Part shown: one piece after another, positions 59,859-62,215 of the stretch
Layout: the number at the start of each line of letters is the position of its first letter
Position numbering within the stretch: the stretch's first letter is position 1
IMG/VR virus record: IMGVR_UViG_2895767234_000001
Span: 7,555-71,554 of that record
From: a virus
Taxonomy: Duplodnaviria; Caudoviricetes
Strand: one strand, 5' to 3'
Length of the DNA stretch: 64,000 nucleotides
The notes under the pieces: generated by a model
Told to the model about the DNA's origin: nothing
Databases searched by the model: none
What the model saw: only the letters and a program-made list of their open reading frames with translations
Program-made: the position numbers and the translations under genes

Positions 59859-60446
59859 ATGCCGAAACGAAAGAGCACCGAAGCGCCGGACAATGTGACG
59901 ACCGCCGAGAATCGCGGCCAGATGCTCCGGCACTTGATCTCTCGCACGGGCAAGAATCTGACCGTGTTCCAGCAAGAAGCGCAGCTGCCTCGAAGCACCC
60001 TGAACGCCCTCCTGGATGGCACGAATGATGTCATCAAGGCAGAAAAAAGGACAGCCCAGGCCATTCAACTGGCGCTCGGCATGTACGACGACGATGTGAT
60101 CGAAGCGCTTGGGCTCCCGCCTGAAGTTCAGCGCAACTGGTACACGGCGCGTCCCGCGCCATTCGGCCATGGCGACTACGTCCTGGATGAGCACCGCCAC
60201 TTGATCCGCCTGGATCGCCCCTTAATGGGCGACGTGGTGCTGCCGGCAGAAACCCTGGTGACCATCGACACGACCACGCGCGATTACGGCATTCAGCTGG
60301 TCAAACTGGTGTCCGGGGAGTTTTTCGCCATGAAAAGTGGCCCGGCAGCGTCAGCTGCCGGGCGCGTCATCGGTCGCTTGTTGTCCGCGGACTTCGGCGC
60401 TGTGCTACCAGTTGACGTGCCGCTGCAAGAGCATGCACAGAACTGA
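59859..60446 (+). CDS. CI-like repressor (HTH plus degenerate S24-like C-domain, 195 aa)
   Basis: GAGGAG RBS; divergent from the cro-like gene; N-terminal HTH FQQEAQLPRSTLNALLDG. Confidence 0.75.
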   Translation: MPKRKSTEAPDNVTTAENRGQMLRHLISRTGKNLTVFQQEAQLPRSTLNALLDGTNDVIKAEKRTAQAIQLALGMYDDDVIEALGLPPEVQRNWYTARPAPFGHGDYVLDEHRHLIRLDRPLMGDVVLPAETLVTIDTTTRDYGIQLVKLVSGEFFAMKSGPAASAAGRVIGRLLSADFGAVLPVDVPLQEHAQN

Positions 60447-60564
60447 AAGTCGCACTGTAAACAGAACCATCCAGCTCGGGGTGAAATTTGCCGCCACTGG
60501 AGGCCAGGGCCAGCCGTTCCTGCTCGTTGATGAGGGTTTCAAGTCTGTGAGGGGTTGAGTTCAT
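60367..60564 (-). CDS. Possible small ORF/antisense transcript overlapping the cI 3' end (AimX-like position)
   Basis: GAGGT RBS; TAGGAT -10 at 60583-60588; 80-nt antisense overlap with cI. Confidence 0.45.
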   Translation of the reverse strand: MNSTPHRLETLINEQERLALASSGGKFHPELDGSVYSATFSSVHALAAARQLVAQRRSPRTTSDR

Positions 60565-60594
60565 TGGAACCTCGGTCAGCGCATCCTAAACAAA

Positions 60595-60622
60595 ATGCCG
60601 CTGTGAGGCGTCACAACTGCGT
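60595..60622. promoter_or_regulatory. Imperfect 28-bp palindrome, candidate receptor-binding site
   Basis: ATGCCGCTGTGA-GGCG-TCACAACTGCGT (9/12 arm symmetry, core TGTGA/TCACA). Confidence 0.5.
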
Positions 60623-60632
60623 AACATTAAGG

Positions 60633-60743
60633 CTAGAGGTAACAGCCCAGGCACGGATCAGCGGCGGCCTTCTGAGACGGCGGGAGTTGGATAGCGGCAG
60701 AAACCGTTAGCATAGCCATCAAACTCATCAGCAATCTTTTCAT
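60633..60743 (-). CDS. Secreted signalling pre-peptide (36 aa), leaderless
   Basis: MKRLLMSLMAMLTVSAAIQLPPSQKAAADPCLGCYL; signal-peptide N/H regions; TATGAT-6nt-ATG. Confidence 0.82.
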   Translation of the reverse strand: MKRLLMSLMAMLTVSAAIQLPPSQKAAADPCLGCYL

Positions 60744-60769
60744 GCAGCCATCATACTGTCCTTGTACGT

Positions 60770-62215
60770 TCAGCCCGAATTTTCGAGCATCTGGCGTACA
60801 TCCCGCGTCAGGAGCTGTGTGGCCCGCGCCCTGGCTTGCTGCCACAGTGCGGCATTTCCAGCATCGCCCGCCTGCGCGAAGCACTGTTCAAGCTGCCTGG
60901 CCCGGGCGATTACACGCCCCATATTCAACGGACTAAGAACGCCGATCTCTTGCAGCCGGTTGGCGTAGCGACGCTTCTCCTCGCGGGCGGGCGCCAACTG
61001 AACAATCCCGGCCCCCTCCAGCGTCAGGAGGCGCCCGATCCGGCCGGGAAGGCGATGGCGCTGCCCCCGATCGAGCACTTCTCCTCCGGTCAGCAGCGGC
61101 ACGAAATTCATGCCGAAGTGGAGTTCTTTGGGCAGATCGGACAAGCTGATCAGCACCAGCGTTTCTCGAAGGAAGCGACTGGCATCCTGTAGCACCGACC
61201 GGGTTTCCCGCAGTCGGAGCGGGGCGGAAACAAGGCTGCTGATCAGAGCGGACGGATCAGGGTGTGCGTGGCCTTCAGTCAAGGCGTGCAGCCAGAACAG
61301 ATCGAACATGAGCGACTGGTCGCCGCGAGGTGGACGCTGCTGACCCATCACGTGCGCCGCCTCGCCTACACCGCCCGGTGTCCCCAGCAGGTGAAGGGCC
61401 TCCCGCTGGCGCGCATATTCACTTTGCGGCTCACCTTTAATGCGGCGTAGCGCAGGCCATGCATCTCTGCACGGCTCCACGATGGCCCTGGCCAGCAGGT
61501 CGTAATCCGCCGAGTCCCCCAGTGGCCCGAGGCCCTGGATCGGAAGGTTCAGCAGCGCGTGTAGGAAGCGGCGCAGTGATCGGTCGCGTTCACCGTCAAT
61601 GGTCGGTAGGCCCAGCACGCGCAGCGCGCCAGGGTAGTCCCCCAGGGCCATCAGCGATTCCGCCCAGGTGCGCCGCCCCCAGGCCAAGCGACGCGCGCTC
61701 ATGGGGGCGGTCATCAGGCGCTGCAGTTCCTCTGGGCGGGGTTTGCCCTGAAGCATGAGCATGCGTTCCTTCTCGATCTCCAGCATGCTCACACGGTTGT
61801 GGAGACCTACGGCTCGCCCCAGCGCCGCCGCCACAGCGAGGTGGCAAAGGGCCGACTCATAGTTCCCGAGCTGGGTTTCCATCACGGCGTGGGCCGAACT
61901 GGCATAGCAGGCGTCCTCTAGTTCCAGCGGCGAGTGGCCTGTGGGACTGGTGTCCTCCAGGGCTACCTGCAGGTAATCCCCCATCTGGGCGTGAAGCATC
62001 ATGCGCACGCCGCGTGCAGGCGGTGTGGGAACCACCTCCAGTAACTTCGCCGCCTGCGTCATGCGCGCCATTTCCCCCGTCGCCAGCGCCACCTGGGCGA
62101 AGCGGGTCTGCTCCAATGCCGTCTCGCGGGGGAAGGTGCGGATCAGTTCGCCGGGGTTGGCCGATGACAGAAAGGCATCGAAGGCGCAGGGGGCGGCGAG
62201 CGAAGGCAGCTTCAT
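60770..62215 (-). CDS. TPR-like putative peptide receptor/regulator (481 aa)
   Basis: TPR-type helices (AHAVMETQLGNYESALCHLAVAAAL; WAESLMALGDYPGALRVL); possible C-terminal DNA-binding domain. Confidence 0.65.
   Translation of the reverse strand: MKLPSLAAPCAFDAFLSSANPGELIRTFPRETALEQTRFAQVALATGEMARMTQAAKLLEVVPTPPARGVRMMLHAQMGDYLQVALEDTSPTGHSPLELEDACYASSAHAVMETQLGNYESALCHLAVAAALGRAVGLHNRVSMLEIEKERMLMLQGKPRPEELQRLMTAPMSARRLAWGRRTWAESLMALGDYPGALRVLGLPTIDGERDRSLRRFLHALLNLPIQGLGPLGDSADYDLLARAIVEPCRDAWPALRRIKGEPQSEYARQREALHLLGTPGGVGEAAHVMGQQRPPRGDQSLMFDLFWLHALTEGHAHPDPSALISSLVSAPLRLRETRSVLQDASRFLRETLVLISLSDLPKELHFGMNFVPLLTGGEVLDRGQRHRLPGRIGRLLTLEGAGIVQLAPAREEKRRYANRLQEIGVLSPLNMGRVIARARQLEQCFAQAGDAGNAALWQQARARATQLLTRDVRQMLENSG

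Follow-up and report, generated by a model that had tools for sequence, protein, structure and literature searches.

Within the immunity region of a 71,554-bp IMG/VR 'provirus' (IMGVR_UViG_2895767234_000001; 65% GC), we examined a set of adjoining genes that resembles a peptide signalling module: a receptor candidate of 481 amino acids (aa) modelled as a tetratricopeptide repeat (TPR) superhelix, a 36-aa precursor with signal-peptide features, and a 65-aa open reading frame (ORF), ORF65, that runs into a cI-like repressor gene. The analysis covered bases 7555-71554 of the record, a stretch of 64,000 nucleotides called the window below. The module is a real, conserved variant of the arbitrium/RRNPP type of system and, among its named members, is confined to Deinococcota. 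We put the probability that it is a phage peptide signalling module working in the manner of 'extended arbitrium', with unrelated sequences, at roughly 0.55, and, since the receptor-peptide pair recurs in all 16 loci, it is a strong candidate for the first peptide-based communication system of phages beyond the Bacillus group. A preliminary description of the window had proposed an arbitrium-like reading, and two results support it: the receptor candidate has the expected class of fold, and its homologues carry the adjacent peptide gene. Independent loci with receptor identities of only 24-48% show the same small ORF, signal peptide, C-terminal CxxC motif and promoter element, which places the observation, at the level of sequence, far beyond chance.

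The order on the minus strand is a receptor promoter-like site, the 481-aa ORF, the 36-aa ORF, ORF65 and a terminator hairpin (Table 1). ORF65 and the cI-like gene are convergent, and the cI-like gene stands back to back with a cro-like gene. The module adjoins this cI/cro-type switch, in agreement with the earlier placement of the signalling genes inside the immunity region.

A predicted secreted-peptide gene adjoins the receptor gene at all loci examined

An exhaustive phmmer search with the 481-aa protein returned 79 representative homologues (clusters), nearly all 450-530 aa long. The loci compared were those of the window, of metagenome contigs L001-L004, L007-L009 and L011-L014, of IMG/VR contig L006, of a Deinococcus arboris prophage (L015), of plasmids of Deinococcus sp. 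KNUC1210 (L016) and QL22 (L017), and of Oceanithermus sp. (L018). When the homologues were checked for a small ORF next to the receptor gene, a secreted-peptide gene was present in 16/16 loci, always co-directional, 32-56 aa in length and starting 7-47 nt past the receptor stop codon. These peptide genes are unannotated in all deposited plasmid records. In the window exactly 26 nt separate the receptor stop codon (TGA, ending at 60770) from the next same-strand ATG, at 60743, as first described.

In the 36-aa product, K/R at positions 2-3 are followed by an uncharged hydrophobic stretch (residues 4-18) with small residues at -3/-1 around positions 15-17, and the tail ends in DPCLGCYL. These computed features bear out the signal peptide and short C-terminal tail attributed to it beforehand. 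Across the 16 precursors, the first seven residues include one to four K/R but neither D nor E, the hydrophobic core reaches a maximum Kyte-Doolittle(10) value of 2.2-3.5, and the -3/-1 residues are small in 15/16. Every precursor ends in C-x-x-C followed by 0-7 residues, the motif being P-C-x-x-C in 15/16 and S-C-x-x-C in one.

The core DPCLGC was found in the window, L001-L004 and L016, and the other cores were APCLGC, QPCPRC, DPCPRC, EPCPPC, DPCPWC, DPCPGC (twice), IPCPDC, RPCPSC, KPCGGC and ASCVKC. The residue pair between the cysteines varies by lineage (LG, PR, VK, PD, PG, GG, PS, PP, PW), as do the flanks, and these variable residues appear to behave as specificity positions would. In the Oceanithermus precursor, the predicted signal-peptidase cut after A-N-A leaves only the heptapeptide DPCPGCV. 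Because just seven residues remain there, this suggests that a short C-terminal peptide is the functional product. In a tree of the receptor-peptide pairs (n = 16, descriptive), the DPCLGC clade was monophyletic with support 94/94, and its sister clade had a different core in each member. The receptor-peptide co-variation that the preliminary description had put forward for checking thus finds a tree compatible with co-diversification, which for 16 pairs is not proof.

A TAnnnT hexamer lies at -12 (±1) from the peptide start codon in 14/16 loci, in the same place as the TATGAT hexamer of the window. Because this geometry matches that of leaderless mRNA, we read TATGAT as the likely promoter of a leaderless peptide mRNA, consistent with the earlier assignment of the 36-aa ORF as leaderless. 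Leaderless mRNAs are common in Deinococcus, and in D. deserti 60% of mRNAs are leaderless or nearly so (PMC4007540).

Two other readings of the precursor were rejected. The cysteines lie 12-35 residues beyond the hydrophobic core, so that there is no lipobox and the protein is not taken as a lipoprotein. A ribosomally synthesised and post-translationally modified peptide with the TPR protein as its modifying enzyme was dropped because the latter has no enzyme domain. PADLOC and NCBIfam gave no match for the peptide, ORF65 or the repressor.

The receptor candidate is modelled as an RRNPP-type TPR superhelix

AlphaFold2, run with a 63-sequence alignment, modelled the receptor candidate with a predicted local distance difference test score (pLDDT) of 96 and a predicted template-modelling score (pTM) of 0.93. 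The model has a TPR superhelix over residues 1 to ~360, with 21 helices up to residue 358, and a separate C-terminal unit (residues 362-481) consisting of a beta-hairpin and five helices. The ORF has neither a signal peptide nor a transmembrane segment, and the protein is predicted to be cytoplasmic.

VIA-align, a Foldseek-independent, unbiased structural search of 48,161 PDB representatives, found MalT domain III as the best match (Z 17.4), and AimR of SPbeta scored Z 16.4 over 304 aligned residues with a root-mean-square deviation of 4.5. Residues ~1-331 of the model superpose on residues ~42-388 of AimR, that is, on the part past its helix-turn-helix (HTH). The phi3T AimR (Z 14.3), NprR (14.2) and the phage phi105 Rap (14.1) followed, with RapI at 12.7, PlcR at 10.9 and ComR at 10.8. 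A second structural look, in which Foldseek's top 1000 chains were re-aligned, placed exclusively AimR, Rap or NprR entries at ranks 2-16 (Z 13.9-16.3, ~290-305 residues), and generic TPR proteins came after (Z ≤13.8). Across both comparisons the leading AimR entries scored Z 16.0-16.4, phage Rap 14.1-15.6 and NprR 14.2-14.6. Because helical repeats reach Z ~14 by architecture, we read these values as a fold class, an 'RRNPP-type TPR sensor fold' in the model, with homology not proven by Z. The TPR-like helical character first ascribed to the 481-aa gene is thereby made more specific: after MalT-III, the nearest solved folds are AimR, Rap and NprR. TPR_2 was matched weakly by 7/63 receptor relatives, and the ESM Atlas neighbours of the receptor were generic TPR/CHAT/MalT-like proteins.

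A family search detected an N-terminal HTH neither in the window protein nor among 63 relatives nor among longer relatives. Together with the AimR alignment that starts past the AimR HTH, this confirms the absence of such a domain, which had been noticed from the sequence. The 481 aa also contain no NTPase (NB-ARC/AAA) domain. It had been suggested that a DNA-binding domain may instead be C-terminal. A separate domain does exist there and, when modelled alone, reached pLDDT 90.5. Its assignment to DNA binding is tentative: the top three VIA-align matches were the SARP-type regulators AfsR, EmbR and AfsR, with weak Z scores of 5.9, 5.6 and 5.3 over 104-112 of the 120 residues, Foldseek gave E ~1, and the PDB profile search returned nothing for this domain. 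The likeness to SARPs seen in the model is too weak for more than a lead.

A direct-repeat promoter element lies behind the peptide gene

The spacer between the peptide gene and ORF65 is 68 nt long and contains a direct repeat, TGTTACGC-AGT-TGTGACGC, whose centre lies about -41 from the presumed ORF65 transcript start. From TAGGAT to the ORF65 ATG there are 18 nt, which include GAGG. A centre near -41, the lack of a -35 consensus and a period of one helical turn together give the arrangement typical of a class II activator site. A composite of this element (a TGTTACGC-like 8-mer, 2/3 nt, a second 8-mer, 19/20 nt, then TAnnnT) is found directly behind the peptide gene in 11/16 loci. All 12 matches to the composite in 251.6 kb of locus sequence fall just after the peptide gene, and the 71.5-kb genome has a single copy of the element. 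Loci L009, L013 and L018 have variant repeats of 11-bp period outside the scored pattern, L012 has an inverted repeat instead of a direct one, and L011 and L016 have no such repeat element.

The element is the same in L006, where the cI/cro operators differ entirely from the GATGTACA sites of the window, and Oceanithermus (L018) keeps a repeat element though its downstream gene and repressor differ. Because the element persists where operators or downstream gene differ, its binder is probably a protein other than cI and Cro that is conserved in all loci. The TPR protein is the only large protein besides cI/Cro that is so conserved, and is thus the sole candidate on these comparisons. A single TGTTACGC/TGTGACGC half-site was also seen in the middle of the cI/cro intergenic region (window 59776-59783; L001 2634; L002 2598), and could be a second, weaker target of the repeat binder.

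The preliminary description had noticed a palindrome after the peptide gene. An imperfect hairpin does exist at 60617-60600, but homologues do not keep it; the conserved cis element is the direct repeat, and we dropped the palindrome as an operator for this reason. The hairpin is possibly a weak terminator of the receptor-peptide transcript.

ORF65 converges on the repressor gene of the switch

ORF65 is antisense to the last 80 nt of the cI-like gene. Its homologues (alignment A7) are 63-72 aa long with 20-41% identity, come from at least 10 loci, conserve a beta-alpha-beta-alpha-like pattern and in every case reach into the repressor gene from its 3' end. The transcript convergent on cI that had been described can therefore be specified as ORF65 followed by its terminator, overlapping the cI-like gene by 80 nt. 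By analogy with AimX we propose ORF65 as the putative antirepressor output of the module, and antisense overlap with the repressor mRNA may contribute to its effect. The ORF65 terminator lies within the repressor coding sequence, and its plus-strand complement would form in the repressor mRNA too.

The cI-like product has weak XRE/lambda-cI-type N-terminal HTH matches and a conserved beta-rich C-terminal domain, and the cro-like gene heads the leftward early operon. Allowing at most one mismatch, GATGTACA occurs 35 times in the window compared to 17.4 ± 4.3 times in shuffles. These operators lie at both divergent control regions, the one between cI and cro and the one between the receptor gene and the rightward early operon (62299-62317), which suggests a single repressor for both, in the manner of lambda OL and OR. 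Because the operators overlie the receptor promoter, the repressor or Cro is likely to regulate receptor expression as well.

Proposed mechanism and alternative explanations

In the arbitrium-like working, the 36-aa precursor would be expressed from a leaderless promoter of its own, leave the cell by the Sec route, be cut by signal peptidase and perhaps be trimmed further to a short P-C-x-x-C C-terminal peptide, here about DPCLGCYL. This peptide would accumulate outside as infections or lysogens multiply and then be re-imported, so that it reports phage or lysogen density. Free of peptide, the TPR protein would bind TGTTACGC-N3-TGTGACGC near -41 and activate the ORF65 promoter, which has no -35 box. 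By analogy with AimX and AimC, ORF65 would then counter the cI-like repressor, as an antirepressor, by the antisense overlap or by both, and favour the cro-led lytic programme. Peptide bound in the TPR groove would turn the receptor off; ORF65 would fall, the repressor would win and the phage would enter or remain in lysogeny.

Several observations weigh against this working. The margin of the RRNPP entries over generic TPR proteins is small (13.9 vs 13.8), and helical repeats can reach Z ~14-17 through shared architecture alone. Foldseek searches of PDB and BFVD gave just generic TPR matches at E >1e-3, and the family profile matched only designed consensus TPR proteins in the PDB (profile positions 106-136 and 162-199). 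No match to the receptor was found in Pfam, PHROG, PADLOC or NCBIfam, so that RRNPP sequence homology is missing; a recognisable DNA-binding domain is missing as well, matches of the C-terminal domain being weak. The canonical repeat element is missing from five loci. The DPCLGC core is identical in a clade with receptor identities down to 34%. An invariant CxxC together with an identical core seems unlike a rapidly diversifying private signal, and the CxxC could reflect a chemical role (disulfide, metal).

A rival reading is a Rap-Phr-like arrangement, in which the peptide would be the TPR ligand and the receptor would not bind DNA. It would instead contact the cI-like repressor, ORF65 or a host factor, much as RapI works via ImmA/ImmR in ICEBs1, and another protein would bind the direct repeat. 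Rap proteins are RRNPP members without a DNA-binding domain (PMC9765709), and here too the receptor is without HTH, its C-terminal domain is without a confident DNA-binding fold, and phage Rap is among the best structural matches. We nevertheless consider this arrangement unlikely. The repeat element travels with the receptor-peptide pair despite changes in the cI/cro operators (L006) or the downstream gene (L018), no other conserved candidate binder is encoded across all loci, and the C-terminal domain of the receptor is conserved and basic.

Alternatively, the TPR protein might regulate ORF65 while the exported CxxC protein, rather than being its ligand, acts separately outside the cytoplasm (in thiol or metal chemistry, envelope modification or superinfection exclusion, for instance), the two merely sharing an operon. 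The invariant CxxC and a core identical across divergent receptors would fit such a chemical or structural role, binding of the peptide to the receptor is a prediction only, and non-peptide ligands are bound by TPR sensors of the kind of MalT-III, the best structural match. We doubt this explanation, given that adjacency is strict in 16/16 loci across two orders, that the precursor can be as short as the signal peptide plus seven residues, which is typical of a signalling peptide and leaves no room for a folded protein, and that the variable residues lie exactly around and within the CxxC core. It is more improbable still that an accessory module (moron, defence or host manipulation) came to stand beside the immunity region by chance and has no part in lysis/lysogeny control. 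TPR proteins are frequent in defence systems, the switch function is predicted from architecture, fold and conservation, and other genes lie downstream of the module in the Oceanithermus and KNUC1210 loci. Against this stand the lack of a PADLOC match, the at least 10 loci in which the module abuts a cI/cro-type pair with ORF65 entering the repressor gene, and the receptor promoter that shares its operators with the switch.

An extension of the arbitrium-like working, which we offer only tentatively and think rather doubtful, is that phages and phage-plasmids of Deinococcota evolved arbitrium-type communication independently, with a chemically new CxxC signal that is redox- or metal-sensitive through a disulfide ring or a thiolate ligand. 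If so, the lysis-lysogeny decision would integrate phage or lysogen density with the oxidative state of the environment. The hosts concerned are known for surviving radiation and desiccation.

Relatives and distribution

Named relatives of the receptor were all from Deinococcota: D. arboris, D. peraridilitoris, D. rufus, D. aquaticus, Deinococcus spp. SL84, Leaf326, KNUC1210 and QL22, and Oceanithermus sp. A search of 72,556 plasmids gave just three matches, all to plasmids from Deinococcus (104-189 kb). No match came from tblastn against 50,697 phage records, scans of genome contigs with alignment A3 and with the D. peraridilitoris protein P0023 confirmed no relative, and a scan of metagenome contigs re-found the IMG/VR contig and nothing further. 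The genes around the module include integrases, antirepressor (ANT/Bro-N) genes, methyltransferases, and SSB or ParA, and the carriers are prophages and probably phage-plasmids. It had been stated in the preliminary description that Deinococcus chromosomes carry short secreted-peptide genes beside TPR regulators, which might be the source of the module. What is present in Deinococcus and Oceanithermus is the same mobile module, in prophages and plasmids, and no separate host system was found as its source.

The operon upstream of and divergent from the receptor gene encodes DdrB, of a Deinococcus-specific family that binds single-stranded DNA, in L008 (888-1343) and SSB in L016 (4790-5434); recombination and replication are the probable functions of the rightward early operon. 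In L016 (NZ_CP092193, 7684-10665), a gene for a 993-aa AAA-family ATPase behind the peptide gene replaces ORF65 and the repeat, and a repressor/cro pair follows ~4.5 kb further on, as in a rearranged or captured version of the module. In L018 (WIAK01000224, 3216-8019), the module is flanked on one side by replication-type genes, which encode an HTH_36 protein and an IstB-like ATPase, and on the other by a ParA gene. The 63-aa ORF downstream consists of helices only and has no relation to ORF65. The L018 carrier therefore looks like a plasmid or phage-plasmid with a different output protein.

Phage context of the module

Matches to a head protein, an integrase and a replication initiator identify the window as phage DNA (Table 1).

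Table 1. Positions of the module, the adjoining switch and phage marker genes in the window
Feature	Position	Strand	Remarks
Receptor candidate, 481 aa	60770-62215	minus	AlphaFold2 model, structural matches, 79 homologous clusters
Receptor promoter-like site, TTGCCA-17-TACATT	62299-62327	minus	overlapped by three GATGTACA operator copies (62299-62317)
TATGAT -10 hexamer	60750-60755	minus	-12..-7 from peptide ATG, 6 nt upstream; TAnnnT in relatives
Pro-peptide gene, 36 aa	60633-60743	minus	homologous gene in 16/16 loci
Direct repeat TGTTACGC-AGT-TGTGACGC, 11-bp period	60608-60626	minus	putative activator site
Imperfect hairpin and T-rich run	60600-60617	minus	overlaps repeat 2; not conserved in homologues
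TAGGAT -10 hexamer, ORF65 promoter	60583-60588	minus	19 nt beyond repeat 2; no consensus -35
ORF65, 65 aa, AimX position	60367-60564	minus	conserved small protein, family alignment A7
Intrinsic-terminator-like hairpin, 10-bp stem, 9 GC pairs	60340-60363	minus	ends ORF65 transcript
cI-like repressor candidate, 195 aa	59859-60446	plus	position conserved in loci
Switch region between cI-like and cro-like genes	59696-59858		GATGTACA clusters 59714-59742, 59819-59837
cro-like HTH_3 protein, 70 aa	59483-59695	minus	Pfam HTH_3 E 2.6e-10; PHROG transcriptional regulators
Tyrosine integrase	54948-55979		
Replication-initiator-like gene	50977-52428		
Major head protein	27961-29079		PHROG 3922, E 6.5e-35

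Between the integrase and the early operon, ARAGORN predicts an 80-nt tRNA-Gly(ccc) at 56816-56895, and the stretch at about 56900-57400 near this call is ORF-poor. Rfam found no tRNA at gathering score in the whole window. An attachment site at this tRNA-Gly, which would place the module outside the phage, was dropped on account of the negative Rfam result and the phage-type early genes on both sides. Upstream of the receptor gene, the ATG of a 173-aa ORF (62311-62832) falls within the operator and -10 region; a GTG at 62401 after AGGAG looks like the true start, giving 143 aa. The product of this ORF has a CxxC...C pattern and no family match.

Significance of the module

In the literature searched, the only hosts described for phage peptide communication (arbitrium and phage Rap-Phr) are Gram-positive, Bacillales among them; arbitrium-like systems are assigned to Bacillales by a 2026 review, and no report linked arbitrium or RRNPP systems to Deinococcus. 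If the arbitrium-like working is true, a conserved module of ~79 protein clusters follows the same logic in another phylum, and viral density-sensing is a recurrent solution rather than a peculiarity of Bacillus. It would also give a first handle on the choice between lysis and lysogeny in Deinococcus phages and phage-plasmids, for which D. arboris, Deinococcus sp. KNUC1210, QL22 and D. peraridilitoris are culturable carriers. The combination of a TPR protein, a signal-peptide ORF ending in PCxxC and a direct-repeat promoter could offer a search model for peptide signalling outside Bacillota.

Comparison with known systems

A 2025 preprint reports about 75% of Bacillus arbitrium systems as 'extended': aimR-aimP-aimX converges with aimC, and aimC diverges from the cro-like aimL. 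The antirepressor AimX, 29-80 aa long, binds AimC there, and its gene sometimes overlaps aimC (bioRxiv 10.1101/2025.11.23.689978). The five-part layout and the orientations in phi106, Waukesha92 and Wbeta are the same as in the window. As in these systems, the output ORF is small (63-72 aa here) and can overlap the convergent repressor gene, the divergent cro-like gene leads early and replication genes, the receptor is a TPR superhelix, here predicted to be cytoplasmic and structurally matched by AimR among its best hits, and a single regulatory site, putative here, lies between the peptide and output genes. The two differ in that no sequence homology is detectable, and in that the receptor, unlike AimR, has an extra C-terminal domain and no N-terminal HTH. 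The AimR operator is an inverted repeat, whereas the element here is a direct repeat of 11-bp period at about -41. The repressor is longer than that of extended arbitrium, 183-201 aa with a conserved C-terminal domain. The peptide had been called unlike AimP, and indeed C-x-x-C is invariant in it, as P-C-x-x-C in 15/16, in place of the xxxxGG/GA hexapeptide of arbitrium. Extended arbitrium hosts are Bacillota, whereas the hosts here are Deinococcota and the system is known from sequence alone.

The Rap-Phr systems (phi105 and phi3T Rap; RapI-PhrI of ICEBs1) likewise have an HTH-less TPR receptor followed by a gene for a Sec-exported pro-peptide, of which the C-terminal 5-7 residues are the signal, and they too are carried by mobile elements and can control induction. 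Rap has an N-terminal three-helix bundle and, unlike the receptor here, no extra C-terminal domain. Its targets are response regulators or ImmA rather than a promoter; it has no sequence similarity to the receptor and comes from a different phylum.

MalT domain III, the best match of the receptor, is the ligand-sensing TPR-like superhelix of a transcription activator, and the SARPs AfsR and EmbR are the only matches that cover most of the C-terminal domain, at Z 5.3-5.9, below the level that separates homology from chance. SARPs bind direct repeats of 11-bp periodicity that replace the -35 box, and the geometry of the direct repeat here would fit a target of this type. Unlike the MalT and SARP activators, the receptor candidate has no STAND NTPase domain and its domain order is reversed.

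The RRNPP features found are thus the TPR-type superhelix and the adjacent gene for an exported pro-peptide, along with the convergent repressor and cro-like gene of extended arbitrium. Because sequence homology and the N-terminal HTH are absent and the host range lies outside Bacillota, we do not file the receptor candidate under the AimR family. The system is best described as an analogue or very remote homologue of the peptide-receptor systems, with apparent hallmarks of its own: the extra C-terminal domain, the direct-repeat operator and the invariant CxxC in the signal.

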